A stretch of 64,000 nt of DNA from a virus, in the IMG/VR virus record IMGVR_UViG_3300033485_000003, positions 1 through 64,000 of that record; one strand, 5' to 3'. Shown here piece after piece: positions 40,032 through 60,311 of the stretch. The position numbers and the translations under genes were made by a program. The notes beneath the pieces were generated by a model. That model ran no database searches, was not told the DNA's origin, and saw nothing but the letters and a program-made list of their open reading frames with translations. The first letter of the stretch is position 1, and the number at the start of each line of letters is the position of its first letter.

Positions 40032-40292
40032 TTACTTCACTTTGAGTTGGCGTCGCAACTTACCAATGATTCGATCTTCCAGCTTCAGAAGTTCCTCTTC
40101 CGACATCATTAGCGCCCTAGCGGCGACCTTCGACGGAACCCCCTGAGGGAAACGAGCGAGAAGCTTATCGAGCGAGTATCCATAGCGGCGATTGCAGATA
40201 AAATCTCGCTCGGTTTGCAGTTTGGTTTGCAGTTCTGTATCTTCAGGATCTATCATAGTGGCTTCTCGGATTCTTTCTGTCTGTGCTATCAT
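40032..40292 (-). CDS. Stand-alone sigma70 region 4.2-like HTH protein
   Basis: GVPSKVAARALMMSEEELLKLEDRIIGKLRRQL aligns by eye to RpoD [28 protein letters not shown]. Confidence 0.55.
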   Translation of the reverse strand: MIAQTERIREATMIDPEDTELQTKLQTERDFICNRRYGYSLDKLLARFPQGVPSKVAARALMMSEEELLKLEDRIIGKLRRQLKVK

Positions 40293-41662
40293 AAGCGCCA
40301 GCGACCATCAGCCATCATCAAGATCGCACGTTTGCCGGTGGCGTAGATGGCAACATGCGCCTGATACCAACTCGAAGGACCGCGATTGTAATCGAGCAGC
40401 AAATAGGTTGATGTACCGGCCTGGTAGTTACCTTCTTCGATGCCAGGAGTGTGAGTATGTCCGGTGACCACCTTGGTTCCGATGCGCGCTAAATTACGCA
40501 AGGTACCTCTAGAGCCGTTAGGACCCTCATTCCCGTGCATGCCGCACTCTATCCCAGCTATCATCAACGACTCTCTGGGCTCTAGGCAGTGCACTTTTGG
40601 AGCTAAACGGCGAACCCAATAAGAAAATGGATCGGGATACTCCACCCCACCAAGGACTGTACGTGCCCCAGCCACCATATGAGCCGCCGTATCAAGGAAA
40701 AACGGAGCATTAAGCGGATCGTCTCGCCAATCTGCGGTCGCCAGCCAGCGCCGCAAAAAGTCGTTGTGGTTGCTCGGTACTACGTGCACCTTCGCTCCAC
40801 ACTCCGCTGCTCGAGATAGGTACGCACACGCGCTCTCTACTTCGGAACGTACACATCCAGAAGCTCCATGGACCTTCGCGATGCGAATGTAAGGATCTCC
40901 TTTGTGATGAGGGTTGAGAGATCTACCATCAAACACATCGTGGGCTACAATATGTTTGGGGCGCAAAACCTCTACCATCCCACCTTCGCCGTAGGTCATG
41001 CGGACTACGTCAGGGTCGGTTACGGCGTCGTGCACGTCTCCTAGTCCAAGTCCAGCGGCTCGTGGAGCCGGACTGAGTCCTTTAGGAGTGTAGACGGTGT
41101 CTAAATCCGTGAACTCCCCCGTACCCCGATCGCAATTAAGTTGCCGAATGGTGTGCCACTTCCCTTCTGTCTCTACGACGATAGCGCCAAGAAAATGGTG
41201 AAAATCTCCCAGTTTTCCGGCTTTTGTCTTGGTTGAATTACGACGAGTCACCGACCCCGTTGTGGACAGGATTTTGGGGTATTTCCCGGCGGGGGAGGCG
41301 ATGCATTTGAGCTGCATTTTGGAGTGCCCTATGATGCAGCCGTCAGTACCGGTCAGAGCTTCGAACCCAGTCAAAGGAGAACAGGCAGTCGGCTGCACCT
41401 TGACGTCAGCCGCCAGCACGAGCCCTTTAGACAGACGAGTACGACGAGTCGTCAAATATGGCCTGATCGACTCGTCCCACCAATCGTCTTTTCGATCTCT
41501 CTCAGCCCACACGGAGGTGGGGTTCTTGTAGCGTATCGGCACCACCAACAATTCGGCCTTTTTGTCGGCGCAATACGCGAGCAGAGATTTTAGCGCTTCT
41601 GTATGTACTGGTGTTGCATTCTGCGCGCTGGTAACGACGTAGCGTTTACCGGAGGTACTCAT
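40289..41662 (-). CDS. Metallophosphoesterase-fold protein, recalled as T5 A1-like
   Basis: LGDVH, HDVFD, SNHND, MHG and GHTH metal motifs. N-terminal VTSAQNATPVH...PTA.SPL.G..TTGSVT is recalled as A1-family. Confidence 0.6.
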   Translation of the reverse strand: MSTSGKRYVVTSAQNATPVHTEALKSLLAYCADKKAELLVVPIRYKNPTSVWAERDRKDDWWDESIRPYLTTRRTRLSKGLVLAADVKVQPTACSPLTGFEALTGTDGCIIGHSKMQLKCIASPAGKYPKILSTTGSVTRRNSTKTKAGKLGDFHHFLGAIVVETEGKWHTIRQLNCDRGTGEFTDLDTVYTPKGLSPAPRAAGLGLGDVHDAVTDPDVVRMTYGEGGMVEVLRPKHIVAHDVFDGRSLNPHHKGDPYIRIAKVHGASGCVRSEVESACAYLSRAAECGAKVHVVPSNHNDFLRRWLATADWRDDPLNAPFFLDTAAHMVAGARTVLGGVEYPDPFSYWVRRLAPKVHCLEPRESLMIAGIECGMHGNEGPNGSRGTLRNLARIGTKVVTGHTHTPGIEEGNYQAGTSTYLLLDYNRGPSSWYQAHVAIYATGKRAILMMADGRWRL

Positions 41663-41693
41663 GAAACCTCCTTTTGCCTCGCAGATGACGCCA

Positions 41694-42212
41694 TTAGCTC
41701 TTCACCGCTGCAGGAGCGTTGCAGTAAATCGCCTCGACGCGAAGCTTGTCCTTGTTCTGGAGCTCCATCTCAAAGCCGGCCGACTGTCCGAGCAGCTGTG
41801 CGAGCAGGCTCGGCTCCATCTGCTTGGCCGGCAACGTCACAGGCTGCGGCGTCTTGAGTTGGCCGTCAGCGCCGAACTGGTTAACAATCAAAAGGCTCTC
41901 GACGGTAACCGCGGGGTCGACCACCAGTGAGCCCTCTGCCAGAGCAGCCTCAATGGCCGCCTTCTGGGCTTGTGCGCGCTCCTCTTGCTGACGAGCCTGC
42001 TGGGCACCGATGGCCTGCTGGATGGCTTCCATGCCGACTGTCTCGACGATGGCGGCGAGAAGTTGGTCCATTTGGTCGATACGTTGATTAAGACCCTGCT
42101 CCTTCTGGGTGCCGAATAGAACCGACTCGATACGACTCAGACGGGTCATTGCATCTGCTGCGCGCTTCGCATTTACTCGATTGTCGTTGCTGGGAATTGC
42201 CATTTTGTTCAT
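41694..42212 (-). CDS. GreA/Rnk-like protein candidate
   Basis: N-terminal coiled coil; C-terminal LLGQSAG.E.E...LRVEAIY resembles the Gre C-terminal domain. Confidence 0.4.
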   Translation of the reverse strand: MNKMAIPSNDNRVNAKRAADAMTRLSRIESVLFGTQKEQGLNQRIDQMDQLLAAIVETVGMEAIQQAIGAQQARQQEERAQAQKAAIEAALAEGSLVVDPAVTVESLLIVNQFGADGQLKTPQPVTLPAKQMEPSLLAQLLGQSAGFEMELQNKDKLRVEAIYCNAPAAVKS

Positions 42213-42229
42213 CTCCTTAGGGTTACTTC

Positions 42230-43078
42230 TTACCGCGCTGCTGCATCTACTCGACCGTCATGAGCCCGCACGTTTGCGTCGGCCAATGCGGAAGCCTTCA
42301 TCTGTGACATCGCCTCAATCTGACGAATCGACGTCGGAAATGGAATGGGCTGAATCGAACCAGTCGGCCGAGCTTGTTGGGTTAGGTCCATCACGACTTC
42401 TCTTTCGACCGTCTTGCCCGTGGCTTGGTCCACCATAGGTGTCATTACAGTCTTAGTAACGCGCTTGATGCCGCCCACGGACTCTACGGCCGGCGCGGTT
42501 GCGGCGGCTGGGGTCGGTGCTGGTGGCTGTGGCGCCTGGACAGACGGCACCACGGACTTGGCCGACACCTTACGTAGGGATGGCTTGGCCGGCACATTCG
42601 CCTTCTTGAGTGTCGGAGCGACGGGCTCAGGTGTAGGTTCGGCCAGCGACGGCTTCTTGGTGACCTTAGCTGCAATCGCCTTCAGGGCTGCGAACACAGT
42701 CGGCGCTGCCAATGCCTTGAGGGCCGTGACTTCGGCCGGCGTAAACATTCCGTCTGTATCGGAACTTTCGACCCCTACAAGCTTAGACATGCGGGTTCGC
42801 ACGAAATCTCGGATCTCCTTGTCAACTACAGCAGCCGCAGGGCCGGTCGAGTCGCTGAAGAAGGAGTCCATCGACAGCACCAGCCGGTAATACTGGGCTA
42901 GCTCGAGGCGGAATTCAACCTCAGCCATCGCTTGTTCGTCGGCGGTTTCCGAAGTCTCTGGTGCGGCTTGTCCGCTGGATGAAACAACGCGAACATTTGG
43001 GCGCGAACAAGCAGGTGTAGGTTCAGCTACATCTGAAGTCGCGTCGTCGAGGGCATCTACATCGAAATCGATTGGCAA
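42230..43078 (-). CDS. Hypothetical Pro/Ala-rich protein
   Basis: 282 aa, TTG start with AGGAG SD, directly after a strong promoter. Confidence 0.7.
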   Translation of the reverse strand: MPIDFDVDALDDATSDVAEPTPACSRPNVRVVSSSGQAAPETSETADEQAMAEVEFRLELAQYYRLVLSMDSFFSDSTGPAAAVVDKEIRDFVRTRMSKLVGVESSDTDGMFTPAEVTALKALAAPTVFAALKAIAAKVTKKPSLAEPTPEPVAPTLKKANVPAKPSLRKVSAKSVVPSVQAPQPPAPTPAAATAPAVESVGGIKRVTKTVMTPMVDQATGKTVEREVVMDLTQQARPTGSIQPIPFPTSIRQIEAMSQMKASALADANVRAHDGRVDAAAR

Positions 43079-43104
43079 GTTAATTCTCCTAGATTTGAAA
43101 GTAC

Positions 43105-43132
43105 AGTATACACGCAGCCGCTAGGATGTCAA
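43105..43132 (-). promoter_or_regulatory. Sigma70-type promoter
   Basis: TTGACA-N16-TATACT. Confidence 0.75.
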
Positions 43133-43208
43133 GCGGCTTTTTACAAAAACGCCCCGAATTGTCTGGTTCGTGGCAACACCGTGCTGCGCTCGCTAGAGCG
43201 GACAAAAG

Positions 43209-43304
43209 ACACCACATCGCGGCCGGCGGTAGGTCCGGGCCTCGTATCCCAGTATAGGTGCACGCCAAACAACAGTACACTCTAATCCTGCTGCGATGTG
43301 GTGT
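43209..43304. ncRNA. Candidate structured RNA (long closing stem with two internal hairpins)
   Basis: Intergenic 12-bp perfect inverted repeat acaccacatcgc/gcgatgtggtgt enclosing GUGUAC/GUGCAC and CUGGG/CCCGG stems (read on the - strand). Confidence 0.5.
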
Positions 43305-43313
43305 GAAATTTAA

Positions 43314-43502
43314 TTAATCGCCCCTCGAGGTAATCGTCCAGGTCGTGGAATCGCCGAATACTTCGGTTACACTTTGTGCTTCTAGCCGAGCAACCAGTAC
43401 CTTGAGTCTGTCCAAATACGACGTCGGAGTACATGACTCGGTAAATCGAGCTATATCCCGCAACGACTTGGCTACATCTTCTCGCGTCAAGAATTTGTCC
43501 AT
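43314..43502 (-). CDS. Small hypothetical protein, paralogue of 45003-45176
   Basis: MDKFLTREDVA...YLDRLKVLVARLE; the A of its ATG is the last base of the IS right end. Confidence 0.65.
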   Translation of the reverse strand: MDKFLTREDVAKSLRDIARFTESCTPTSYLDRLKVLVARLEAQSVTEVFGDSTTWTITSRGD

Positions 43503-43700
43503 TGATGCTCCCGGGGCGTCGCCCCTGGATTCCAGTTGTAGTTAAACGATGCATTGTGTAACTCCTTTACTGGTTTGCGGATCGTCAATAAGCCGCGCCG
43601 ACAACTCTCTTTCGTTATCGGTTTGCCCTCGTAACGCGATGTTAAATGCAGCATTTGCGTCACGATGATCAATGTGTCCACATTGTTTACACTTGAACTT
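43482..43700 (-). ncRNA. Predicted TnpB omega/reRNA (scaffold to 43502, guide TGGACAAATTCTTGACGCGA)
   Basis: Inferred from known IS605 biology: the scaffold overlaps the tnpB 3' end and right end, and the guide is the flank. The 5' boundary is approximate. Confidence 0.55.
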
Positions 43701-44609
43701 CTTCCCCGAGACAGTGTTGACGTGACCGCACCGTGAGCAACCCTTGGAAGTATTCCTGGGGTCGATGTAGATGACAGTAATGCCGCGCAAGGAAGCCTTG
43801 TACTTGACGTATTGTTCAAGTTGGAAGTACGACCAATTCGACTTCTGGACGTATTTTCCGCATTTCTTGGAGTCTCGAATCTTTCCGAGGTCTTCCAAAA
43901 CAATGGACTTACAATGGGTTGCGGCATAATCAACGACTTGCTTGGACACCTTGTGATTGATGTCTCGAGTTCGATTCGACTGCTTGCGCTTGAGCTTCTT
44001 GCATGCCCCAAACGCTTTCTTTGATTGCAACTTCGCCTTTCTGTTTCGGAGGTTGTCCTTCCACTGCTTGATGTCTGGACCTAGACGTTCGACGTGCCCA
44101 TTCTCTGGGTCCGCTAGGGTTGCTACGTTGCCAACGGCGTTGCGGTCTACACCGATGAACCCGTGACACTCGACGGTGTTTACTGGAGTGTTGTAGGTGT
44201 AACTCAGAAACCACCTACCGTCACGCTTGAAGAACTCAACCGAGCGAACGTGCCCGATAATCGGCTTGAGCGGGTGGATTTGAATCGATTGCTTCTTGGT
44301 GATCGCAGGAATTCGGAGTTGGTTATTCGACTCCAACTTGACCTGAGTCCCTTTGTCGCCGCATATCGGAATGACCGGGTTCCGCACCTTCTTGCACTTC
44401 CGGTTCTTCTGATACTTCGTAATCAGGCTCTTGGCGACAACGCACGGAACATCATGGTAGAACTTGGAGGAAGTCTGCGTACGGTTCGCCAACATGCGCT
44501 TGACAACGATTCTACTCTTGACTAGTAACACATCTAACGAGGAGTCGAACTCATGCCCGACAAGCGCTTTATTGGTCACAACCACTGTGTCTATAGTCTG
44601 ACGTTCCAT
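43542..44609 (-). CDS. tnpB: TnpB RNA-guided endonuclease (~355 aa)
   Basis: RuvC triad intact (IGVD, VLEDL, RDANAA); Zn finger CSRC/CKQC. Start uncertain (44609 preferred over 44747). Confidence 0.9.
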   Translation of the reverse strand: MERQTIDTVVVTNKALVGHEFDSSLDVLLVKSRIVVKRMLANRTQTSSKFYHDVPCVVAKSLITKYQKNRKCKKVRNPVIPICGDKGTQVKLESNNQLRIPAITKKQSIQIHPLKPIIGHVRSVEFFKRDGRWFLSYTYNTPVNTVECHGFIGVDRNAVGNVATLADPENGHVERLGPDIKQWKDNLRNRKAKLQSKKAFGACKKLKRKQSNRTRDINHKVSKQVVDYAATHCKSIVLEDLGKIRDSKKCGKYVQKSNWSYFQLEQYVKYKASLRGITVIYIDPRNTSKGCSRCGHVNTVSGKKFKCKQCGHIDHRDANAAFNIALRGQTDNERELSARLIDDPQTSKGVTQCIV

Positions 44610-44962
44610 GTGATTTTCGTGACCAAGTTCCGAAGAAAGTGTTTGAACCAAACCGCCCTGAACCATCTCTACACCAGTATACCATGGATTGCAAGCGGCT
44701 TGGGGGTGTCGGTCGGAGAAATCAAAGGCGAAGCCGACCACATCCACTTTATTTTAGAGACCTCGCCCACCGACACCCTGGCGTCTTTGATTGGTGCCAT
44801 CAAGTGCAAGTCCACGTCGAACTTGTTGGCTTCTGGGTGTAAGCCGCCTTTCTGGGGACAGCATTCTCGCACATTGTGGTCAAGTAGTTACTTTGTATGT
44901 TCTACGGTGGCGTGAGTATCGACAAACTCGAGTAATACATCAAGAATCAGGGTGCGGTCTAA
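44553..44962 (+). pseudogene. tnpA: Y1 HUH transposase TnpA, disrupted
   Basis: HVIFVTKFRR, DHIH and LWSSSYF present. A frameshift near 44905 and TAA at 44933 cut off GGVSIDKLE*YIKNQ, which holds the catalytic Tyr. Confidence 0.85.
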
Positions 44963-45002
44963 CCCACCCCATCGGGGTGGGATTGCGACCGAAGCCATTC
45001 AG

Positions 45003-45176
45003 TTACCACTTTCCTTCCCAAGCCCCTGGAAAATACCCAGCCGCCTTTTGCTCCTCGAGCTTCGCAACCAACTTTTTCATCCAATCCAAACAATAGATGG
45101 GGTTGGTGGCTTTGGTGGAATCAGACATATTCTTGAGTTGAGCGGCCACCAGCTCTCGTGTCAAAATCTTGTCCAT
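45003..45176 (-). CDS. Small hypothetical protein (57 aa, not in the ORF track)
   Basis: MDKILTRELVAAQLKNMSDSTKATNPIYCLDWMKKLVAKLEEQ...; abuts the dut stop; paralogue of 43314. Confidence 0.7.
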   Translation of the reverse strand: MDKILTRELVAAQLKNMSDSTKATNPIYCLDWMKKLVAKLEEQKAAGYFPGAWEGKW

Positions 45177-45830
45177 TTAGACTCCAGTTGAGCCGAAGCC
45201 GTTTGCGCCGCGGTCCGTTTCTGACACTTCGGTAACTTCTACGCACTCCATCAGCGACACGGGTGCAACCACGAGCTGAGCAATCCGGTCGCCAGCCTTG
45301 ATGTCCACTGTCCCGGGACCGTGATTGATGAGAATCACCTTGACGTTGCCTGTGTAGGCGGTGTCGATGGTGCCCGGAGCATTTAACACTGTCACGCCCT
45401 TCTTGGCTGCCAGGCCGCTACGGGGGCGAACTTGCCCTTCGTATCCAGTCGGAAGTTCCAGTTGGATGCCCGTATCGTACGCGTGAAACGCGCCGGGTGC
45501 AAGCGACAAAGTCTCGACCGAGACCAGGTCGAGACCGGAATCGGTGGTGTGTGCCCGGGTGGGTTGCACGGCGGCCGGGTGAACCTTCTTGAACTTCAAG
45601 ACGGGGAAGTACGGGTTCGGAAGCGAAGAATCCACGCCGATGCCCCATACGCCAGTCGTGCGCGGGATTTCGCCGCCGCACGGCGGTGTGATAAAAGGTA
45701 CAACAAGTGAATTCACGGTAGTCGCTACCTGCTCCTGCGTACATCCGCAGGCGGTGTTCTCTGAACTCATGCCAGTGTGGTCGGTGAGCATGCCGCAATC
45801 ACAATTCTCGGTATTGGTGGAATCAGACAT
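45177..45830 (-). CDS. dut: dUTPase (trimeric type) with N-terminal extension
   Basis: SGLDL, RPRSG, GTIDTAYTG, RIAQL and RGANGFGSTG. AAGGAG SD before ATG 45830. Confidence 0.93.
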   Translation of the reverse strand: MSDSTNTENCDCGMLTDHTGMSSENTACGCTQEQVATTVNSLVVPFITPPCGGEIPRTTGVWGIGVDSSLPNPYFPVLKFKKVHPAAVQPTRAHTTDSGLDLVSVETLSLAPGAFHAYDTGIQLELPTGYEGQVRPRSGLAAKKGVTVLNAPGTIDTAYTGNVKVILINHGPGTVDIKAGDRIAQLVVAPVSLMECVEVTEVSETDRGANGFGSTGV

Positions 45831-45857
45831 TCGGATATCTCCTTGTTTGGTTCCACC

Positions 45858-45886
45858 ATTGTACCACGGATTACTTGATGGGGCAA
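45858..45886 (-). promoter_or_regulatory. Sigma70-type promoter
   Basis: TTGCCC-N17-TACAAT with extended TGG. Confidence 0.6.
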
Positions 45887-48724: not shown

Positions 48725-48735
48725 TCAGCCGGGTG

Positions 48736-49431
48736 TTAGTTTTTGGTCTTTTTGGGCTTGTCGAACACATCTTTGTTCGTCAAAACATGACAGCCCTTCA
48801 AATATGCCTGCACTTGGCAATGTGCATCCGCGATGTCGTCATCACCCTTCTTGAAATCGGCGTCCCAAGTGAGGTTGCAATACGCTACGGCGATGGATTT
48901 TTTGTCGATTTTGCCGTGGATGCATTTTTTGCGGAGCACGACCATATGGGCGTCTAGGCGGGCTTTGGCTTCTTTTTTGGAAGCGGCATCTCGCGCGGAC
49001 TTCAGTTCAGCCTTGAGGCGTTTTTGCTCCAAAAGCAATAATTTTGATTGCTTCCTGGTCGTAGCCACTGACAGGTCCAAGGTCTTTCGCCAATCCGACG
49101 TGTTAATGTAGTGGATTTTGACGGGGAACTCCGAGAGATTCTTGACGACGGTATAGTGAATCATGTCGAGAATCTTCTGTGAGTGCCGGGAACCAAACCT
49201 ACTAGAGGTCTTGTTGATTTCTTCGATCACCACGTCGGTTACATCGGGGTTCTTCGATAGCAGCTCAGCTACTTGCTCGCCCATGTCGTCGGCCACCATG
49301 ATGAAGTTTTGAGGATATTCCGCAACATCCCACCCAATTCGCTTTGTAATGAGACCCGAAGATGTCGGTTTTCCATCGGTGAAGATGGCCCATCCAGTCG
49401 AGGTGCTGAGGTCGAGTCCGAGTATCGCCAT
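48736..49431 (-). CDS. RuvC-like Holliday junction resolvase
   Basis: ILGLDLSTSTGW, VVIEE, SDWRK and DDIADA. Confidence 0.8.
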   Translation of the reverse strand: MAILGLDLSTSTGWAIFTDGKPTSSGLITKRIGWDVAEYPQNFIMVADDMGEQVAELLSKNPDVTDVVIEEINKTSSRFGSRHSQKILDMIHYTVVKNLSEFPVKIHYINTSDWRKTLDLSVATTRKQSKLLLLEQKRLKAELKSARDAASKKEAKARLDAHMVVLRKKCIHGKIDKKSIAVAYCNLTWDADFKKGDDDIADAHCQVQAYLKGCHVLTNKDVFDKPKKTKN

Positions 49432-49436
49432 GAACT

Positions 49437-50015
49437 TTAGATTCCGGTGGACAGACCGCTCAAGACCTCACGAAGATGAGTAAGGAAGACCTGGTTGAGA
49501 TCTTTGATGACGAGTTCCGAAGTGGAGTATTGTTCGAAAAACATGTTGAATATCTGGATGTTATGAACCGCCGCAATACGCAGAGCCTGTCCGGTGCCAC
49601 CTGTAGGGCGGCCGCCAGCAGTCCAACACACTACAACCTGAACTGGAGATTTGAGGTCGATACCGAGAACCTGTGCGCTATTGCGCGCCATAAGTTTCCT
49701 GGCGCCATCGCCTAGACGATCCCATGCTGGATGGAACTCCCTAGCGTGCAACATCAGTTCCGTCCAGTTGTTGGGAGCGATAAACCCAGCTCCAGTTTTT
49801 GGAATGTGTTCTTCAAAGGAGGGCCAAGGGAGGTACGCCGTACAAAATTGCGCAGCACCGAGCTCAAAAGCCTGGTCGGCCCCTGGCGCATGTCCAGAGC
49901 GGACTTGTATTTTGTTAACCGCGCACCACTGGCCGATTTTTACCATCTCGGCCAAGATAGAGCCGGGTGTTTCTCTACTGCCGATGCCGGCGATTGCGAG
50001 TTGAGAGTCAAGCAT
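49437..50015 (-). CDS. DprA/Smf-like SLOG-fold protein
   Basis: AGIGSRETP, RSGHAPGADQAFE, MARN and GGTGQALRIA. Confidence 0.75.
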   Translation of the reverse strand: MLDSQLAIAGIGSRETPGSILAEMVKIGQWCAVNKIQVRSGHAPGADQAFELGAAQFCTAYLPWPSFEEHIPKTGAGFIAPNNWTELMLHAREFHPAWDRLGDGARKLMARNSAQVLGIDLKSPVQVVVCWTAGGRPTGGTGQALRIAAVHNIQIFNMFFEQYSTSELVIKDLNQVFLTHLREVLSGLSTGI

Positions 50016-52828: not shown

Positions 52829-52844
52829 TTGCATTCTCCTCTGC

Positions 52845-53051: not shown

Positions 53052-53060
53052 TTTGTCTAC

Positions 53061-53291: not shown

Positions 53292-53310
53292 AGTTAGCTC
53301 CACAAGCGTT

Positions 53311-53414
53311 AAGCTGGAGGCGGTGACAGGAGAAACGCCGCCTCCAGCTTCGTTCTATCACAAAAGAAAAAGTTGGAGGTGGACTACCGAGAACCACCCC
53401 CAACTTTCGTTCTA
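53311..53414 (-). terminator. Two related tandem hairpins after groEL; the groEL-proximal one is an intrinsic terminator
   Basis: Stems 53369-53407 (followed by TTCTTTT on -) and 53311-53350; each is preceded on - by TAGAACG. Confidence 0.75.
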
Positions 53415-53415
53415 C

Positions 53416-55161
53416 TTAAGCTCGATCGTTTGCTGGGTTGTCGTCGACGGTGCGCATGTAATTCGCGCTGTCGCGAGCTTCAGCGTGATCTACTTCAGCG
53501 TCACGGACGAAGGCACAAACACCGCCGCAAGTTCCAAGGAGCGAGGCGATGGAAATGGAGTTGCGAACGGCCTCTAATACTGCAGGAACCGAGTCCAAAA
53601 GCCCCTCCTTAAAAGCGTCTACTAGTTTACCTTCGAGAATGTCGTAAACGATCGACCCAGAATTCTTCATCACCGAAGTAGGCTCTACAATCTCGTCGAC
53701 GTGGTAGCCGGCATTGATGTAGAGGCGGTCAATCGGCTCTTGCAGTGCCGGCACCAGAACCTCGCGCAACATCTCGTCGTGGGTCAAAAGTGACTGCAAC
53801 CGCAGCAACATCCATCCTCCGGCCGGCAGTGCGCCGTGCTCGATAGCCCCGCGAACTGCGCAAACGGCGTCGTCGACTCGGTCTCGCTTCTCTCGGAGTT
53901 CGCCACCACTCGCTCCAACCACTGTAAGGCGAGCAACACCGCCGCTCACTTTCCCCAGGCGCTCAGCGACGATGTGCTGGTCCAACTTGCTCAAACCGCC
54001 GATTTCAAGCTGCTTCGAGAGCTGATCGACGCGCTCAAGGACCAAGAGTTCGTCGGCAAAACCGATGACGGTGGTGCGGAACCGACCAGCTTCAAACGAC
54101 GGGGTGTGTCCGAGGTCCTCTACTCGGGCGTTCGCCAATGGCTGATTGATTGGGTCAAAAATGACACCACCAGTCATAGCCGCAAGGTCGGCCAAGAAAT
54201 CGTACTGGCCGGACTGCATTTGGTTGAGTGGAGCAACAAGCGGGTAGATGTTGAGGGAGCCAGCTTCACGGAAATTGAGGGCGAAGTTGCTGAGGGTGCT
54301 CTCCGAAAACCCACAGGCGACGAAGACCACGTTCTGAGAAATTTTCCCAGCTTGCGCGGCGGAGATGATCTCATCAAACAACTTGAGCGCGTCGTAGATG
54401 TCGTTGAGCTTGCCATGGTACAGCACGTACGAAGGCTTATCGAACGCGCACAGCTGACGAGGAACGTCGTTGATGAACTGCTGATAGAACTTCCCGCACG
54501 AATCCTCATAGCCGGTGGAAATCTGGTACCCGTCGATCTTGTCGACTTTGTAGCCGGCTGGACCGGACTCCTCGACAACCGTGATGTTACCTTTGTCGCC
54601 AGTGAGCTCGAAGCACTGAATCACCGCATCAGCCAGGGCCTTATCTCCATTGGCGGAAACCTTAGCGACAGCGTGGAGGAGTTTGCGTCCTTGCTTTGTG
54701 GCCAGCGACACCTTCCTTGCAAACTTTCGAATGGCCGGCTCGATGATGTTTTTGAACGCCGCCTCAAGCGCTCGAACGATGCGCTGTGGAGACACCTTAG
54801 GGTTACGCTCACAGTATTCCTGAGTGTATCGGACAATCGCTTCTGCCAGCACAATCGAGGTGGTAGTACCGTCTCCGGCAGACGCCGCGGTTCGAACGCT
54901 GCAATCTCGAGCCGATTCCATGATAACTTGCTTGATGGAATCCTGGAACCCCATATTGTTAAAAACGGTCACGCCGTCCTTGGTCAAAAACGGCGGCAAC
55001 AACTCTTCTTGCCGCTCAATCACAACACTAAGTCCACCTGGACCGAGAGTGCTACCAACGAGATCAGAGCACGTCTTCATTGTCTCGCGGAGAACGCGCT
55101 GGAGTTCAGGGCCGCGGGTCAACATCTTCTTGGGGGCGCTCTTGGCTTTTTGGTGTTGCAT
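53416..55161 (-). CDS. groEL: Phage chaperonin GroEL/Cpn60
   Basis: STLGPGG, TKDGVTV, AGDGTTT, SANGD, ERLGKVSGGVA and EKRDRVDDA. Confidence 0.93.
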   Translation of the reverse strand: MQHQKAKSAPKKMLTRGPELQRVLRETMKTCSDLVGSTLGPGGLSVVIERQEELLPPFLTKDGVTVFNNMGFQDSIKQVIMESARDCSVRTAASAGDGTTTSIVLAEAIVRYTQEYCERNPKVSPQRIVRALEAAFKNIIEPAIRKFARKVSLATKQGRKLLHAVAKVSANGDKALADAVIQCFELTGDKGNITVVEESGPAGYKVDKIDGYQISTGYEDSCGKFYQQFINDVPRQLCAFDKPSYVLYHGKLNDIYDALKLFDEIISAAQAGKISQNVVFVACGFSESTLSNFALNFREAGSLNIYPLVAPLNQMQSGQYDFLADLAAMTGGVIFDPINQPLANARVEDLGHTPSFEAGRFRTTVIGFADELLVLERVDQLSKQLEIGGLSKLDQHIVAERLGKVSGGVARLTVVGASGGELREKRDRVDDAVCAVRGAIEHGALPAGGWMLLRLQSLLTHDEMLREVLVPALQEPIDRLYINAGYHVDEIVEPTSVMKNSGSIVYDILEGKLVDAFKEGLLDSVPAVLEAVRNSISIASLLGTCGGVCAFVRDAEVDHAEARDSANYMRTVDDNPANDRA

Positions 55162-55186
55162 TAGGACTCCTGCGAAGGTTTCCTCC

Positions 55187-55196
55187 AGTATACCAC
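55187..55196 (-). promoter_or_regulatory. Extended -10 promoter
   Basis: GTGGTATACT upstream of groEL. Confidence 0.6.
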
Positions 55197-55271
55197 AACG
55201 CCACTACAATAACTCCAACGCCTCGAAAGTCACCCACATCGGGGTGGACTTGCGGCGCCCTTATGGCGAGG

Positions 55272-55949
55272 TCATTTCTTACCAGCCGTGGTTTTCTCGA
55301 GGATTTTAAGTAATGCCGCATCGACATCGTCCGGTGACATCGACTTGATTTCCTTGGATTGCCCATCAACCACCTCGCCTTTGTCTTCTGTACGATGCGT
55401 ATGGAGAATCTCACCCGATACGTTCTTGTCTTTATCCTGTCCCGTGAGACGAAGCAATAGCTCAAGGGTCTGCTGGTACGCCTTCAAGGTCATTTGTCCC
55501 TTCAAGTCGCCCAAGTCCTCTTCCTTGCCGGTCTGCAAAAACCGACGCAACTTATCGCCATTCAGCTTGTTGAACGCGGCAGCCCACAGACTCACGAACT
55601 GAACCGACTCGAGCTGGCTAGCCTGCACGGTCTCGTGGATCCGCTCCACCAAGCCTTCGGTGTAGTCCTTGCGCTTGAGGTCCCAATCGCCATCCATCTT
55701 AGCTCGAACAATCTCCCCCAACTTAAAGGAGGAGTTCATAGCCTGAATATCCTTGGCGCTACATCCACGCAAGTACAAGTTGTAGAATTGCTGAGATGTC
55801 GCAGGGGAGATAGGCGGCTTGCCGGATGACATGTAGTCGAGGTAGGCCTCCTTCTCTTCAGGCTCCAAAGCCTCGAAGCGCCCTTCTGCGGTGTCGAGGT
55901 TGGCCATCTGCTTACGGGCTCTACGCTCCAAACGAGATTCACGCGCCAT
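55272..55949 (-). CDS. HTH + coiled-coil protein, possible terminase small subunit
   Basis: Start MARESRL with GGAGG SD; LYLRG.S.KDI HTH, W...R and C-terminal MSPDDVDAAL pattern. Confidence 0.4.
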   Translation of the reverse strand: MARESRLERRARKQMANLDTAEGRFEALEPEEKEAYLDYMSSGKPPISPATSQQFYNLYLRGCSAKDIQAMNSSFKLGEIVRAKMDGDWDLKRKDYTEGLVERIHETVQASQLESVQFVSLWAAAFNKLNGDKLRRFLQTGKEEDLGDLKGQMTLKAYQQTLELLLRLTGQDKDKNVSGEILHTHRTEDKGEVVDGQSKEIKSMSPDDVDAALLKILEKTTAGKK

Positions 55950-56166
55950 TTTTGGCCTCCTGTACTTCGACGTCGTTGTATGGGGCATGACAACAATTGC
56001 CTTCTGCGATGCACTCAAGAGCTTCCCACTCACAAAGCTCGGCGCCATACTCTCCAGAATCATCGTGTTTAGCCCACGCCGCCGCCCTGGCGGCGACCTT
56101 ATCATCGGCCTCGACCTTAAAAATCAAGCGACCTGCGATGGGGATGGTTACGTAGTAAGTTTTCAT
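55939..56166 (-). CDS. Small hypothetical protein (tandem paralogue)
   Basis: MKTYYVTIPIAGRLIFKVEADD. Confidence 0.7.
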   Translation of the reverse strand: MKTYYVTIPIAGRLIFKVEADDKVAARAAAWAKHDDSGEYGAELCEWEALECIAEGNCCHAPYNDVEVQEAKNGA

Positions 56167-56387
56167 AAGGTCCTCTTGATTGTAGCCTCTACGCCCTTGT
56201 ACTTAAGACGCGACACGGTGATCTCATTGAGTGTTTCGTACGCATCCCACTCCACATCAACAGCGTCCAAACTTGCGGATGCCGCATATGTCGCCGCCGC
56301 CACACGCTTGGCACCACTCTCGCTAGACGATTTCACCTCAAAGAGAATCCTGCCTGCAATTGGAATCGATACATAGTAGGTCTTCAT
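56163..56387 (-). CDS. Small hypothetical protein (tandem paralogue)
   Basis: MKTYYVSIPIAGRILFEVKSSS; ATGA overlaps. Confidence 0.7.
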   Translation of the reverse strand: MKTYYVSIPIAGRILFEVKSSSESGAKRVAAATYAASASLDAVDVEWDAYETLNEITVSRLKYKGVEATIKRTL

Positions 56388-56770
56388 GGCATCCTTTTGA
56401 CGGTTACTTTCGTGTTCGGGTTGTATCCGCACAATGGGTCGATATCATCTTTTGGGAGCTCTTGCAAGCGTGTCCCACGATAGATCACCGTACGTGCTCG
56501 CTTAACCACCACCAACCACGACCCGCCAAACAGACTCTGTACCGCCTGGTCCAACTTGAATAGGAGTTGGGGTTTTTCGATATTCTTCTTGGGGGGCAAG
56601 GTCAAGACGAAAGTGACGGTGAATTCGTCTTGGTCGATCACCACTTTATGTTTGAGTGACTCTGGGAAAAATAGCTTAGGCCATACATTGACAGTCTTGA
56701 GCTGCCAGTCTGCGATGTGTAAGCCGGTGTTGGATAGCAGCCGCTGATGTGACACAAGTTCGTCACTCAT
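56384..56770 (-). CDS. Hypothetical protein
   Basis: 128 aa, ATGA-coupled to sbcD. Confidence 0.6.
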   Translation of the reverse strand: MSDELVSHQRLLSNTGLHIADWQLKTVNVWPKLFFPESLKHKVVIDQDEFTVTFVLTLPPKKNIEKPQLLFKLDQAVQSLFGGSWLVVVKRARTVIYRGTRLQELPKDDIDPLCGYNPNTKVTVKRMP

Positions 56771-57762
56771 AGCAACCCCGGAAGTCTCTCTTGTACCATT
56801 TTCCCCAAAACCTCATTCGATGTCCCGTACTTGGTTTGGTAACCGCCGACGAACATTTTGATAGCCGCACCGATCCCCATGGACTCTCGCACCGCCGACT
56901 TCGCCGCATTTACCGGAAAAGTCCTAACGCGACACCCGCTCCACCTCGCCCGGCGCTCTTGAATGAACTTCGCATCGCCATGGATGTCGATGATGTAACG
57001 CCAATTCGGATTGATGTCAAGTTGCAACGGACTCTCAATTCGGTCTTCGAATCGGAGGATCTTGTGGCAAAACTGTTCGGTTTTTACGGATTTGATTACT
57101 TTGGCGCCCTTAACTCCGAATTCAATTACATTTACCGACCGGTCGATGTTGGCATCTGAGGCCGTGCGCCACCTAGGGGCTCCTGGGTAAAATACGTCAC
57201 AGCCGAATACGGCCAAGCCCTCAGAAACCCGGTCGAATCGGTATGGAGTGTGCATGTGGCCGATGACGAAGCTTTTGTCTTGCACGTCTTCTAGGGATGC
57301 CGCATCGGGAGCGTAAAACCCGTTGTCGTATTTTGAGCCCTGCACTGCTTGGTGGGCTACAACGCACTTCGCATCGGACTCACGTACGGAGCGCAAGAAA
57401 TCTTCGTTGCTGTGAGTGTATGGCATAAACAAAACACCGTCCATCTCCGTCGGCTTATCTACCACAGTAATGGCGTCAACGTGAGCCAACATAGAGTGGT
57501 TGGGGCTTGAACCGGCTGCCGCAAGGTCGTGGTTTCCCACCAAGGCGATTACCGGTGTTGTACAAAGTGCAGCAAACGCCTGACGCCACCACGCCATCAC
57601 TTCACAATTCACGAGCTTGTGGTTGTGGTACTGATCGCCCATAAAGATGACGTTGTCGACCTCTTCGTCGACGACGATCGGCAAAATGCCGTCGATGAGG
57701 GCTTGGCAGTCATCAAGCTCGCCTTCAACGGCGTGGACGTCACCTACAACTAGAGATCGCAC
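56767..57762 (-). CDS. SbcD/Mre11/gp47-like nuclease
   Basis: GDVH, GD, GNHD, AHQ and GHMH phosphoesterase motifs. Confidence 0.85.
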   Translation of the reverse strand: MRSLVVGDVHAVEGELDDCQALIDGILPIVVDEEVDNVIFMGDQYHNHKLVNCEVMAWWRQAFAALCTTPVIALVGNHDLAAAGSSPNHSMLAHVDAITVVDKPTEMDGVLFMPYTHSNEDFLRSVRESDAKCVVAHQAVQGSKYDNGFYAPDAASLEDVQDKSFVIGHMHTPYRFDRVSEGLAVFGCDVFYPGAPRWRTASDANIDRSVNVIEFGVKGAKVIKSVKTEQFCHKILRFEDRIESPLQLDINPNWRYIIDIHGDAKFIQERRARWSGCRVRTFPVNAAKSAVRESMGIGAAIKMFVGGYQTKYGTSNEVLGKMVQERLPGLL

Positions 57763-57959
57763 GGTTCCCCCTTATATAAAGACATTTCAGCGTAACGGAT
57801 CTTCAACATACCGAGAGCTACAAGAGCCTGCTCTTCATCGTGTTCAGCCTTTAACGCCCGGAACACCCAACCCTCCATGGCCGTTGTGATTTTTTGCTTG
57901 AACTCGTCAAAGCGCTTTTTCTCCGCGAGAAGAGCTTCCAAGTAATTGATTTCGCTCAT
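57750..57959 (-). CDS. Hypothetical protein
   Basis: 69 aa, coupled ORF. Confidence 0.55.
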   Translation of the reverse strand: MSEINYLEALLAEKKRFDEFKQKITTAMEGWVFRALKAEHDEEQALVALGMLKIRYAEMSLYKGEPCDL

Positions 57960-58216
57960 CGCGCCTGCCCAAAGTAATTGGACACCACCTGAGTCGTGAC
58001 TTTGTCCACCTCCACAACACTCGACTTAATCAAAGCGAGTAATTCCGTGGCCTTCCGACACCAATCAGCTGGACTAGGAACGGCCGGCAAGGCCGACTGG
58101 ACCAAACTATCGAACTTTTGGGCGGAGATATCACGGCGCAACGCGACGGCTTGACGGCGTGTCGCGCAATACAACTGCCGGGCGTAAGAGAGGGAGTCGT
58201 AGTTGGAGGCGTTCAT
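57956..58216 (-). CDS. Hypothetical protein
   Basis: 86 aa, coupled ORF. Confidence 0.55.
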   Translation of the reverse strand: MNASNYDSLSYARQLYCATRRQAVALRRDISAQKFDSLVQSALPAVPSPADWCRKATELLALIKSSVVEVDKVTTQVVSNYFGQAR

Positions 58217-58422
58217 CGCTTCACCTTCAAGTCGATGTCGTCGGCAAACATAGCATTACTGATAGCCTTGAGCCGCTTCTCGGATGACTCTTTAAAATGC
58301 GCTTGCTCCAACCACTTAAGGCGCTCAATCAACTGTGCGGAGTGGGCCTTAACTTCCGTAAGCTCCTGTTCGAGGTAGTCTACCCTGTCTTCAAGGTGGT
58401 TGATTCTCGCGGTTCCCATCAC
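58213..58422 (-). CDS. Small coiled-coil protein
   Basis: 69 aa, heptad pattern. Confidence 0.55.
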   Translation of the reverse strand: MMGTARINHLEDRVDYLEQELTEVKAHSAQLIERLKWLEQAHFKESSEKRLKAISNAMFADDIDLKVKR

Positions 58423-58883
58423 TTCATCTCCGCCGTTGTCGTGTAACTCCCCGATACGCTGGTAATACCGTCACTATCGACAAGAATCGCGGTGGGAATC
58501 AAAGTCATGCCGCTCCCGGACGTTCGGAGGACCTGATGGGTGCTGCCAGGCGTGCACGTCACATACGGCTCCTCCACGAGCTGGATCATCGTCTTTGGCA
58601 CCAAAATAAAAGTCTTGTCGCCAACCGTGAAGACGTCCTTAGCCCATTGCTGGGTATACAAATCCCCACGCACCCACACCTTAACCCCTGGAATGAATTG
58701 CTTACAGCCATCTCCGGATGCTAGGAAAACCACCTCGAGCTGCTGTAGTTCAAGGGTGTTGGAAATCAGCACCATGCCGCCGACGCGCTTCTTCTCGACG
58801 TGTCGAGTTGGGAACGGCGTGCAAGCCACAAGGCCATTGACGGTGGAAACCGATGACGTTTCATTGGTAGAGCTGGTGGTCAT
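58419..58883 (-). CDS. Divergent GroES/Cpn10-like co-chaperonin
   Basis: EKKRVGGMVL mobile loop, EVVFLASG, PGVKVWV and VGDKTFILVPKTMIQLVE follow the GroES pattern. Confidence 0.65.
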   Translation of the reverse strand: MTTSSTNETSSVSTVNGLVACTPFPTRHVEKKRVGGMVLISNTLELQQLEVVFLASGDGCKQFIPGVKVWVRGDLYTQQWAKDVFTVGDKTFILVPKTMIQLVEEPYVTCTPGSTHQVLRTSGSGMTLIPTAILVDSDGITSVSGSYTTTAEMK

Positions 58884-58899
58884 TTTATCTCCTTCGAAT

Positions 58900-59253
58900 T
58901 TACATCAAGTTTTTATCGACTTTGGACAGAGCGTCTTTGGCATCGTCCAAGGCGTACTCAAGTCGCGCTAGATAGCACTCACATCCAGCCGACATCCCTG
59001 CTAGTTCACTTGCAACATCCTCGGACGGCTCGATCATCCCGTCGAGCGCCTTCGCCAATTCGACGACGAGAGCGAGTGCGGAGTCCCGCTCTTGAATTGT
59101 TTTGCGCATCGAGTTCCACAGCGTGTGACTGCGGATCTCGTCCGGCACCATCACATCTTCCCCCGCAGCAAAATCGACGTACCGAAGTCCCTCTGTCGCT
59201 CCGACCACATCCGCTAGCTGCTTGAGAGCCTGCTCGGTTTTACAGTTGTTCAC
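58900..59253 (-). CDS. Hypothetical protein
   Basis: 117 aa, coupled to the sigma gene. Confidence 0.55.
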   Translation of the reverse strand: MNNCKTEQALKQLADVVGATEGLRYVDFAAGEDVMVPDEIRSHTLWNSMRKTIQERDSALALVVELAKALDGMIEPSEDVASELAGMSAGCECYLARLEYALDDAKDALSKVDKNLM

Positions 59254-60311
59254 AATGAGATCCCTTTCAGACGAAGTAGCTTCTGCTCTACCACGGAAAG
59301 ATCCTTAAGTCCAGCTTGGAGACTTACTAGAGCTTGAGTCCTCTCGACGATGACGTCCGGCCGATGTTCTTCATCATCCTCATAGCACTCGAGAGTGGTA
59401 TCTCCGGTCTCTTGGTCGACAGCACAGTCTCCGGAAACATGGCTGGCTGCCGCAAGAAGACCTTGGATTTCCGGGACTGTTACATGGTTCTTTTCGGGGA
59501 TGTTTTCGTTGACCGCGGCGACGATCAAGTCCATGTCGGTGTTCTTGTCGAGGAACCGGGAGGCTTTGTGAGCGCGATACACACGTCGTGCGTCAACAGG
59601 CCAGAGATGCAACAGTGTGGAATTGTAGGCCTCTATCCTATCTCCACACATACGCCCGAGGATTACATCTCGGAATACCTTGAAGGTTTTAAGTTCTTCC
59701 TCGTCCGTCATGTTTTCTGTGAGGAGCGGGTCAAATTTGTCGATCCCCTCCTGCAATCCGATAGCGTGCGTCTGAATCAAATCCAAAAACGACATGTGGG
59801 AGCGTGGAGTTTGGTTCCAGAACGTCCGGCAATAACTGATGGCTAACGGCAGGTTCATTTCCATGATTTCCGTGCGAATTCGCTCGATTTCACGGATCGA
59901 CGCACGGATCTCTGGGTTCAAAGTGTCGCCAGCGGTATCTTTGCACCATCTAAAGTAGCGGTAATTGAACTTGAACTTGTGCAGCGCTGCACCATCGCGC
60001 GCCTTGAGTGCCGGTGAGATCTCGGCAGTGAACTTCGTTTGACGTTCACGGAAATACGGCCTGCTCGAAAGGAGGTTCCGCTTGGTATCGCAAATGTACT
60101 GGATGAACGAGACGTACACCGACGCCCCATACACCTCAAACAGTTGGCCTTGCGCTTTACGCTCAGCCGCGATAAGAGCCTTGAGCTGTCGACGTTGAGT
60201 GTGCAACCGATCAACGTCAGTCATTTTGCCGTATCGACCGATAGCGGCTGTAAGGGATTTTGCGAAGTTCTTAAAGAAGACATCGCTGTTGTCATATCCG
60301 CCGATACTCAT
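59250..60311 (-). CDS. Sigma70-family factor lacking the region 4.2 HTH (putative late sigma)
   Basis: EIMEMNLPLAIS, FLDLIQ..IGL..IDKFD, a region 3 and acidic 3.2 finger; ends LSVVEQKLLRLKGISL, equivalent to RpoD LTAREAKVLRMRFGI. Confidence 0.8.
   Translation of the reverse strand: MSIGGYDNSDVFFKNFAKSLTAAIGRYGKMTDVDRLHTQRRQLKALIAAERKAQGQLFEVYGASVYVSFIQYICDTKRNLLSSRPYFRERQTKFTAEISPALKARDGAALHKFKFNYRYFRWCKDTAGDTLNPEIRASIREIERIRTEIMEMNLPLAISYCRTFWNQTPRSHMSFLDLIQTHAIGLQEGIDKFDPLLTENMTDEEELKTFKVFRDVILGRMCGDRIEAYNSTLLHLWPVDARRVYRAHKASRFLDKNTDMDLIVAAVNENIPEKNHVTVPEIQGLLAAASHVSGDCAVDQETGDTTLECYEDDEEHRPDVIVERTQALVSLQAGLKDLSVVEQKLLRLKGISL

Follow-up and report, generated by a model that had tools for sequence, protein, structure and literature searches.

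The late transcription system of bacteriophage T4 combines gp55, a minimal region-2 sigma factor that lacks a −35 reader, with gp33 and the gp45 sliding clamp, and each of its late promoters has just one short box, similar to a −10 element. T4 gp33 binds the β-flap, takes the usual place of sigma region 4 and has no known likeness to sigma4. T4 also encodes AsiA, a small helical protein of about 90 aa with an HTH-like motif, which binds the region 4 helices of sigma70 and not DNA. In the laboratory, E. coli sigma70 that has been cut before region 4.2 still forms a holoenzyme and initiates transcription without −35 contact at extended −10 promoters. Finally, in two-subunit sigma factors (B. subtilis SigO–RsoA, Tn916 Sig7–Sig8 and SPO1 gp34–gp33), the functions of one sigma are split over two polypeptides that join RNAP (bioRxiv 10.64898/2026.10.01.756105). 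These pairs are encoded by adjacent genes, as are the known two-subunit sigmas of cells and ICEs in general, and their region-4 subunit reads the −35 element.

Here we describe a sigma factor of 353 aa and an 86-aa mini-protein of Mx1-like phages, encoded in one window, the whole stretch of 64,000 nt that was analysed (Table 1). The locus resembles the T4 late system in that the phage sigma lacks a −35 reader, a single short −10-like box is the putative late promoter, the proposed occupant of the sigma4 site is a small, acidic, helical co-factor, and a link to replication is possible, the mini-protein gene being fixed here to a polymerase gene. It differs from T4 in that the sigma is long and group-1/2-like, with regions 1.2, 3, 3.2 and 4.1, the mini-protein has an HTH of the sigma4/LuxR class, and the late mRNAs would be leaderless; PHROGs and Pfam link neither protein to gp55 or gp33. 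A division of sigma functions between two polypeptides, as we propose, would be shared with the two-subunit sigmas, but the genes here are separated by 4–19 kb, a −35 box is lacking and the protein that resembles region 4 is acidic. Whereas the truncated E. coli sigma70 proteins were made in the laboratory and depend on a TGn element, the phage sigma belongs to a natural, conserved family and its candidate promoters lack TGn. The mini-protein shares with AsiA its approximate size, an all-helical, HTH-like make-up and, as proposed, action on sigma region 4; however, AsiA remodels the host sigma70, while the proposed target here is the phage's own sigma. We know of no earlier description of a group-1-like sigma split after region 4.1.

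Table 1. Positions of the genes and candidate promoters in the window
Feature	Position	Strand	Remarks
Sigma70-family factor, 353 aa	59250..60311	−	HMM, profile and fold matches
Mini-protein, 86 aa	40032..40292	−	Sigma4/LuxR-class C-terminal HTH, acidic recognition helix, conserved KLR
DnaE-type DNA polymerase III alpha, 1720 aa, intein-containing	34622..39784	−	Downstream neighbour of mini-protein gene
DNA helicase	61228..62775	−	Conserved upstream neighbour of sigma gene, 19/21 genomes
154-aa protein, possibly Cpn10/GroES-like (lead only)	58419..58883	−	Conserved downstream neighbour of sigma
AATCTT-N5-T directly before ATG, 254-aa ORF	1343..1354	+	−10-only late promoter candidate, would yield leaderless mRNA
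AATCTT-N5-T before ATG of 1874-aa ORF	2127..2138	+	
AATCTT-N5-T before ATG of 160-aa ORF	7779..7790	+	
AATCTT-N5-T before GTG of 375-aa ORF	15295..15306	+	
AATCTT-N5-T, then short leader with AAGGAG before ORF at 19405	19370..19381	+	
AATCTT-N5-T before ATG of 82-aa frame	22132..22143	+	
AATCTA variant 6 nt before ATG of 231-aa ORF 48736-49431(−)	49432..49443	−	

The phage sigma factor ends after region 4.1

The sigma gene encodes an N-terminus like region 1.2 and the non-conserved region (NCR), regions 2.1–2.4, region 3, the 3.2 linker and region 4.1, with a 12-aa insert between regions 2.2 and 2.3. Its sigma70 identity, put forward in the preliminary description, is borne out by NCBIfam RpoD/RpoS models, which match regions 1.2–2.2 (residues 127–196, E 1e-11 to 1e-8), by the sigma family profile, which matches RpoD chains in the PDB (E 5e-12), and by Foldseek, where the best matches are sigmaA/sigma70. 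The Pfam Sigma70_r2 match is sub-threshold (17.5 bits), and the sole match in PHROGs is phrog_351, a generic sigma factor family. The protein aligns to E. coli RpoD residues 370–567. The core-binding helices of regions 2.1–2.2 are present ('NLPLAIS...FLDLIQ...GL..GIDKF', compared to 'NLRLVIS...FLDLIQ...GL..AVDKF' in RpoD), as are region 3 and the 3.2 linker, where the profile alignment is unbroken across RpoD 455–540 and the fold aligns over residues 1–353. Region 2.3 does lack the WW dyad, as had been noted: W433/W434 of E. coli are replaced by V/I according to hmmalign or by G/R according to the profile alignment, and the aromatic melting residues Y430, W433 and W434 are unmatched, with only the invariant F213–R214 pair retained. 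The N-terminal domain had been called novel, but it superposes on region 1.2 and the NCR (model residues 1–353 against E. coli sigma70 84–566, Z ~10); model residues 33–223 superpose on domain 2 of C. crescentus sigma70 (Z 11.2, rmsd 3.3 Å, 171 residues aligned).

The protein stops where the −35-binding HTH would begin. Its final residues, 'LRLK-GISL', fall on E. coli RpoD 559–567 ('LRMRFGIDM') in the hmmalign alignment, in which RpoD 568–613, including the HTH, has no counterpart, and the VIA-align superposition extends no further than E. coli residue 566, T. thermophilus residue 376 and M. tuberculosis residue 482. The region 4.2 HTH is likewise missing from all 23 aligned homologues, which stop a few residues (at most ~12) past a conserved 'LLRLKGvxL'; K344 and G350 do not vary. 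The same endpoint is shared by all 82 homologues found, that of Myxococcus phage Mx1 included; they are 334–369 aa long, except for one 616-aa copy with an intein. Because all of them stop at the same place, the truncation is native and family-wide, and the full-length homologues that would have marked it as an artefact were not found. An artefact could also have arisen by frameshift or sequencing error, or region 4.2 could be supplied by read-through into a downstream 117-aa ORF, which overlaps the sigma stop codon (GTGA) and contains an HTH-looking stretch. However, this ORF has no homologue in 90 related loci, 79%-identical relatives included, and no Pfam or PHROG match; together with the endpoint shared by the 23 homologues and Mx1, this leaves the artefact reading practically no chance, and we reject it.

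The 353-aa protein is thus very probably a native initiation factor of the sigma70 family: it has regions 1.2, 2, 3, 3.2 and 4.1 but, like every known relative, no −35-reading HTH. Binding to the RNAP core and promoter specificity are its predicted functions. Since the end is conserved, with two invariant residues, its terminal helices are under selection although their usual partner in cis is missing, and the hydrophobic, strongly conserved orphan 4.1 helices suggest a partner. Such a partner is not logically required, because sigma70 without region 4.2 can act alone at some (extended −10) promoters.

Candidate late promoters without a −35 element

The 103-kb genome contains 56 AATCT[TA] hexamers, of which 11 are spaced exactly 6 nt from a downstream start codon that opens an ORF of at least 82 aa, 10 of these on the strand of the virion genes. 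No conserved −35 or TGn element is found upstream of these start-codon sites, in keeping with the preliminary description, which proposed a late sigma that reads AATCTT-N5-T. The motif recurs in four relatives and in Mx1, where AATCTT-N6-ATG is enriched and strand-biased (37 sites, compared to 4 for the reversed control). Because the copy upstream of the ORF at 19405 is followed by a short leader that carries a Shine-Dalgarno sequence, AATCTT is better read as a promoter than as a translation signal, and we infer promoter activity for these sites from their sequence. A Gre-like factor, which had been cited as supporting context, is not backed by Pfam, PHROGs or the PDB.

A mini-protein with an acidic recognition helix

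Database gene calls for the mini-protein begin at M13 (position 40256); with M1 as the start, the ATG would share bases with the stop codon of the upstream gene (ATGA). Its viral family comprises ~123 representative clusters, and its AF2 model consists of four helices (pLDDT 86). Residues 45–85 align with sigma70 ~560–604 as originally drawn, with SEEEL in place of TRERI and KLR retained. The sigma4 likeness itself is weak. Using hhalign, the family matched five E. coli sigma4 sequences over 41 columns (the same sigma70 segment) with P 1.6e-4 and a probability of 51%, and matched NarL, of the LuxR type, with P 1.3e-4, on par with FliA; in a sequence search of the PDB, the NarL HTH came first (E 0.01). 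The HTH superposes on sigma4 of SigL, FliA, SigW and RpoE with Z 2.4–2.9 and rmsd 0.7–3.0 Å over 35–40 residues. No Foldseek match has E <= 0.001, and no VIA-align Z exceeds 3.8. Pfam and PHROGs have no match for the window's copy, and PF04545 scans of its genome and five relatives did not pick up the mini-protein; 4 of 64 family members match PF04545 below threshold (best E 1.3e-4). The sub-threshold Pfam and NCBIfam matches of family members are mostly to sigma models, which outnumber NarL, and among the 30 nearest ESM-Atlas clusters, 20 have PF04545 in 63–83% of their members.

The HTH therefore has a weak likeness to sigma4.2, equal to its likeness to LuxR/NarL. Of the two genuine sigma70 pieces claimed in the preliminary description, the truncated sigma is real, but the label does not fit the mini-protein, because NarL matches it as well as FliA. 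Nor is it a clean complement of the missing segment, since it overlaps the end of region 4.1 and carries ~40 extra N-terminal residues; with a four-helix domain of its own, it probably spans more than region 4.2.

The acidity first noticed in one copy is a property of the family. Among 64 members, columns 65–67 and 69 at the helix start are D/E in 64–77% and basic in at most 11%, and the median pI is 5.2. The basic DNA-contact residues of E. coli (R584, R586 and R588) are unmatched, the aligned positions being E/D in 64–77% of the members. Because the recognition helix is acidic family-wide, the mini-protein probably does not bind DNA. An ordinary DNA-binding regulator of the LuxR/GerE type, perhaps one that autoregulates the dnaE operon, would agree with the NarL matches and with the gene's position upstream of dnaE, but the acidic helix start and low pI are unfavourable for DNA contact and the sub-threshold matches are richer in sigma models than in NarL; we consider such a regulator very unlikely. 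With its acidic helix, this conserved HTH of the sigma4/LuxR class fits a gp33-like role, and not that of a −35 reader.

The charge reversal at DNA-contact positions of a sigma4-class HTH, together with a phage sigma that has no region 4.2, could also indicate a decoy of sigma region 4 that occupies the β-flap tip of the host RNAP, or a binder of a host sigma4-docking factor. The −35-dependent transcription of host and early genes would then be shut off, and the −35-independent phage sigma would go on. Phages do target the sigma4/β-flap interface, as T4 AsiA, T4 gp33 and ORF67 of phage G1 (4g8x) illustrate. However, the weak predicted contact of the mini-protein is with the phage sigma and not RNAP, and the decoy overlaps with a two-part sigma, as a gp33-like occupation of the flap would serve both jobs. 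As a separate explanation, the decoy is distinctly improbable.

Gene neighbourhoods and the predicted complex

In 21/21 related genomes, the mini-protein gene immediately precedes dnaE in the same orientation, with gaps of 20–813 nt, while its other neighbour and its placement relative to sigma both vary. Downstream of sigma, the gene for the 154-aa protein is found in 53 related loci; in the window's phage, an ORFan lies between. The two genes of interest are 19 kb apart in the window, as first described, and 3.7–17 kb apart in the complete relatives that list both positions; they are on opposite strands in some relatives, and in none of 80 loci is the mini-protein gene within 3 kb of sigma. 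All 15 searched related records with the sigma also have the mini-protein gene (11 are rated 100% complete), and of the 5 records to which the mini-protein gene led, 4 have the sigma, the exception being a 31%-complete fragment. The expected co-occurrence thus holds in every complete relative tested, although the genes are never adjacent; because these relatives form a single phage lineage, it may mean no more than that both are core genes.

The predicted complex of sigma and mini-protein scored 0.57 (best control 0.00). By the calibration of the method, most passes in this score range are false, except where the pairing was already likely on other grounds. Of 80 solved complexes, 58 reach the pass mark, as do 2 of 110 mismatched pairs, and the passes at or below 0.60 include only 7 of the 80 solved complexes plus both mismatches. 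The runs share at least 58% of their contacts, with a partner pLDDT of at least 68. We take the predicted complex as weakly supporting a pairing. The distance matrix of the mini-protein follows that of sigma better than those of the helicase or dnaE, without significance (partial r 0.21, 35/500 permutations).

These observations bear on a reading in which the sigma alone is a −10-only factor and the mini-protein is unrelated to it, serving as an accessory of the replisome or of dnaE expression, such as an adaptor for the DnaE polymerase. The invariable position before dnaE, the variable and never close placement relative to sigma, and promoters without any upstream element that requires a second reader all favour it. 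However, the divergence of the mini-protein does not track that of dnaE once shared history is controlled (partial r 0.004), we know of no replisome role for a sigma4/LuxR-class HTH, the complex with sigma scores above all controls, albeit weakly, and the conserved orphan 4.1 helices hint at a partner. On balance, we regard this reading as rather unlikely.

A model for late transcription

The evidence for a phage sigma that does not read a −35 box is good. We think it reasonably probable that the phage sigma steers the host RNAP core to −10-only (c)AATCTT-N5-T promoters, with the start at the A of the virion-gene ATG. AATCTT retains the A at −11 and the T at −7, the two positions of TATAAT where base flipping by sigma region 2 takes place, and starting at the A of the ATG would produce leaderless late mRNAs. 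That the truncated sigma and the mini-protein together form a two-part late sigma is plausible, though we hold it only tentatively. In such a two-part sigma, the mini-protein would be a free-standing sigma4/LuxR-class HTH that acts via protein contacts instead of reading DNA. It would dock on the sigma's orphan 4.1 helices, the β-flap tip or both, and fill the usual site of sigma region 4, as gp33 does for T4 gp55. Because its gene is fixed to dnaE, and because a 6-bp promoter holds too little information alone, the mini-protein may also couple the phage's late transcription to its replication.

The sigma factor natively ends before region 4.2

The evidence well supports a sigma factor, distributed across a large phage family, that natively lacks its −35 reader. 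NCBIfam RpoD/RpoS models match residues 127–196 of the 353-aa protein (E 1e-11 to 1e-8), and whole-length NCBIfam models (SigB, ECF and FliA) extend to residue 348–349, leaving their final 38–50 positions unmatched. Against the PDB, the family profile identifies RpoD chains (E 5e-12) over a span corresponding to Escherichia coli sigma70 370–567. By profile alignment, the C-terminus falls on the 'LRMRFGIDM' segment of E. coli RpoD (559–567), and RpoD 568–613, including the whole 4.2 helix-turn-helix (HTH), has no counterpart.

Among 5.8 billion proteins searched, 82 homologues measure 334–369 aa, and one more, of 616 aa, carries an intein (P0036; PF14890). In 23 aligned homologues with 29–79% identity, the last residue never lies more than a few positions from a conserved 'KLLRLKG(V/I)xL' motif near the C-terminus, in which K344 and G350 are invariant. 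The homologue in Myxococcus phage Mx1 (WNM70309.1), annotated as a 'putative RNA polymerase sigma factor' and not discussed in the Mx1 literature searched, has the same C-terminal end. This common end point, together with the alignment's end at RpoD 567, indicates that the truncation is native and family-wide; none of the homologous sigmas is full length, and the truncation before the −35-binding HTH claimed in the preliminary description is no artefact.

The predicted structure agrees with this assignment. The AF2 model (pLDDT 80) has a Foldseek match to sigmaA/sigma70 (E 2e-5), and VIA-align superposes its residues 1–353 on E. coli sigma70 84–566 and residues 33–223 on Caulobacter crescentus sigma70 domain 2 (Z 11.2, rmsd 3.3 Å, 171 residues). 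Region 2.3 is without W433/W434, as first described, and in this phage a 12-aa insert follows region 2.2. The N-terminal 130 residues, initially taken for a novel domain, correspond instead to region 1.2 and the non-conserved region.

The family that shares this factor is large and widespread. The window covers 64 kb from the start of a 103-kb viral record with 64% completeness (CheckV), and its DNA is matched elsewhere in wetland metagenomes only. Mx1 (169.6 kb) is its sole relative among GenBank phages; the metagenomic relatives have genomes of 144–182 kb, several with terminal repeats. Virion genes occupy the + strand at about 1.3–23 kb, and replication and regulatory genes the − strand from 23 kb onward.

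Features discussed in the text (window coordinates unless another record is named)
Feature	Position	Strand	Remarks
DnaE-type DNA polymerase III alpha (dnaE)	34622–39784	−	1720 aa
Small protein	40032–40292	−	86 aa
Metallophosphatase, T5 A1-like 'DNA transfer protein'	40289–41662	−	457 aa; phrog_1745, E 3e-139; upstream of the small gene
'Gre-like' ORF	41694–42212	−	172 aa
154-aa protein	58419–58883	−	kept downstream of sigma in 53 loci
117-aa ORFan	58900–59253	−	separates sigma from the 154-aa gene; its GTG shares bases with the sigma stop (GTGA)
Sigma factor	59250–60311	−	353 aa
Perfect TATAAT	60354–60349	−	37 nt upstream of the sigma ATG; no good −35 box
Two LRV-repeat paralogues	60424–61223	−	141 and 125 aa; between helicase and sigma
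Small-protein homologue of Mx1	L002 (Mx1 locus) 3977–4219 = OR576727.2 157455–157697	−	80 aa; unannotated in the GenBank record

The sigma neighbourhood and the search for a separate region 4.2

We excluded the 117-aa ORF that follows sigma as a donor of region 4.2: about 90 related loci contain no homologue of it, neither Pfam nor PHROGs gave a match, and relatives with 79% identity do without it, their 154-aa gene lying directly after sigma. Scanning the window's genome and five relatives with PF04545 revealed no conserved sigma4 candidate, the sub-threshold matches all being in homing-endonuclease-like or excisionase-like ORFs. Atlas neighbours of the 154-aa protein carry Cpn10 in 14–43% of their members (lead score 0.88), and as a lead only, the protein may be a Cpn10-like, phage GroES-like co-chaperonin.

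On the other side of sigma, a helicase is the upstream neighbour in 19 of 21 genomes. The two small paralogues with leucine-rich-repeat-variant (LRV) repeats are found in the closest relatives only. A consensus scan called no full sigma-70-type promoter upstream of the sigma gene; the TATAAT found there would suit early or middle transcription by the host holoenzyme.

An acidic, free-standing HTH protein

The small protein, whose start in database gene calls is M13, belongs to a family of 123 representative clusters (64–218 aa; exhaustive HMMER search), the longer members having low-complexity or coiled-coil N-termini. Its consensus reads DPDF(I/V)..KR(F/Y).YSL.KL.ERYP.G.PD.VIA.AL..(T/S)E.EVE..Y..IV.KLR, and no form fused to sigma occurs among 1.84 billion representatives. 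The AF2 model is confident, with four helices (pLDDT 86).

Several comparisons are weakly consistent with a sigma4-class HTH. NCBIfam matches among the members are mostly to sigma models (sigma70-ECF 7/64, NarL 5/64), Pfam matches are to Sigma70_r4 (4/64), GerE (3/64) and HTH_69 (10/64), and 20 of the 30 nearest Atlas clusters have PF04545 in 63–83% of their members. VIA-align places residues 45/52–86 on sigma4 of SigL, FliA, SigW and RpoE (Z 2.4–2.9), and Foldseek with the model returned nothing at E ≤ 0.001. With hhalign, the family aligns to five E. coli sigma4 sequences with a probability of 51% (P 1.6e-4), at about sigma70 560–604; against single sequences, NarL (P 1.3e-4) does about as well as FliA (P 3.9e-4), and the family profile ranks PDB entries in the order NarL (E 0.01), WhiG (0.32) and FliA (0.9). 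The claim of a 4.2-like HTH with an acidic recognition helix therefore divides: its likeness to 4.2 is weak, with NarL an equal match, and its acidity holds throughout the family. Positions aligned to sigma70 R584, R586 and R588, which contact DNA, carry E or D in 64–77% of members and a basic residue in no more than 11%, and the median pI is 5.2. We consider the protein best described as a free-standing HTH of the sigma4/LuxR class that is unlikely to read DNA.

The small protein is not the exact missing piece of sigma: it also covers the end of region 4.1 and extends about 40 residues further at its N-terminus. Duplication of sigma's own C-terminus was rejected as its origin, hhalign between the two families giving a probability of 2%. 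We also considered an analogue of T5 A2, since the upstream neighbour is T5 A1-like, and ruled it out: hhalign against a T5-like A2 gives a probability of 0.7%, just 5 or so of 21 relatives have the A1-like neighbour, and the family is absent from the vicinity of the A1-like genes in a T5-like, a Flavobacterium and a Stenotrophomonas phage. The A1-like group itself, phrog_1745, spans 1131 phage records, including T5-like, Vibrio, Flavobacterium and Caulobacter phages.

Partner of sigma or companion of dnaE

One copy of the small gene was found in each of the 15 sigma-bearing relatives searched (132–182 kb records, 11 rated 100% complete). Conversely, a search with a sub-alignment of the small family reached five new contigs, four of which carry sigma; the fifth is a 31%-complete fragment. 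Both genes are thus present together as the co-occurrence check anticipated, but all genomes tested are of one phage lineage, and their shared presence shows core-gene status, not interaction. The main rival reading ties the role of the small protein to dnaE. None of 80 loci has the small gene within 3 kb of sigma. In 21 of 21 genomes the small gene's immediate downstream neighbour, encoded on the same strand, is dnaE; the neighbour on the other side varies. The same order is seen in Mx1, where the small gene overlaps the 3′ end of a 142-aa CDS (WNM70294.1) in another frame and is followed closely by the gene for DNA polymerase III alpha. Mirror-tree partial correlations of the small protein are 0.21 with sigma (35/500 permutations), 0.12 with helicase and 0.004 with dnaE, and are not significant.

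Complex prediction gives sigma and the small protein weak support (score 0.57, best control 0.00; no interface reported); its runs share at least 58% of contacts, and partner pLDDT is at least 68. Of 80 solved complexes, 58 reach the mark, and so do 2 of 110 mismatched pairs; scores at or below 0.60 include only 7 of those 80 and both mismatches. On balance, we judge a two-part sigma possible, at somewhat less than even chances.

Two further observations concern this locus. DnaE is 1289 aa in Mx1, and the extra segment in the window's protein resembles an intein that carries a homing-endonuclease-type insert. Sequence searches of Pfam, PHROGs and the PDB gave no match for the 'Gre-like' ORF, described earlier as Gre/Rnk-like.

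Candidate leaderless late promoters

In the 103-kb genome, 11 of 56 AATCT[TA] hexamers, or about one fifth of the copies of this 6-bp box, precede the start codon of an ORF of at least 82 aa at a distance of exactly 6 nt, and 10 of these 11 share the strand of the virion genes. Alignment of the 55 nt upstream shows no −35 or TGn element, just a weak C at −13 and a T at −1. Four complete relatives and Mx1 also show enrichment and strand bias of AATCTT-N6-ATG (37 sites versus 4 for the reversed control). The strongest bias among the relatives is in a 182-kb genome (G007), with 13 of 13 sites on one strand and 1 reversed-control site, which would make it a good genome for defining the late regulon.

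Downstream of the AATCTT copy at 19370 comes a leader with AAGGAG, an arrangement that favours a promoter over a ribosome signal; the terL gene of Mx1 uses a Shine-Dalgarno sequence instead. On established sigma70 promoter geometry, AATCTT would retain A(−11) and T(−7) of TATAAT, and its spacing would set +1 on the A of the ATG. A sigma without a −35 reader would pair coherently with such putative leaderless late promoters. The box is too frequent to provide specificity alone, so an extra input at late promoters is likely. In T4 late transcription, the extra input is the sliding clamp.

Discussion

To our knowledge, −35-free promoter recognition and the timing of phage late genes are understood in depth for T4 only. 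The system proposed here would work most like T4 gp55/gp33/gp45; we detect no homology to the T4 proteins, and the sigma architecture is much fuller. In the split sigmas SigO–RsoA, Tn916 Sig7–Sig8 and SPO1 gp34/gp33 (bioRxiv 10.64898/2026.10.01.756105), the genes are adjacent, in contrast to the distant small gene here, and in those of cells and ICEs one subunit reads the −35 element.

In the proposed design, a long sigma70-like factor would have lost its −35 reader, and a separate, charge-reversed sigma4-like mini-protein would bind the beta-flap as well as the 4.1 helices left orphaned in the sigma. From late promoters of just about 6 bp, transcription would begin at the A of the start codon. 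The mini-protein, its gene being locked to dnaE, would couple late transcription to replication. We regard this three-way design, with its replication coupling, as rather unlikely in its entirety; if true, it would be an independently evolved counterpart of T4 gp55/gp33/gp45 made from recognisable sigma-class parts.

The system raises the questions of what occupies the beta-flap site when sigma has no 4.2, where the specificity of a 6-bp box comes from, and why late mRNAs that appear leaderless would be used in a host that normally uses Shine-Dalgarno sequences. The culturable pair of Mx1 and Myxococcus xanthus makes it experimentally tractable. The family would offer a second, independent solution to −35-free late promoters, one whose parts still align to sigma70, so that structure–function rules are transferable.
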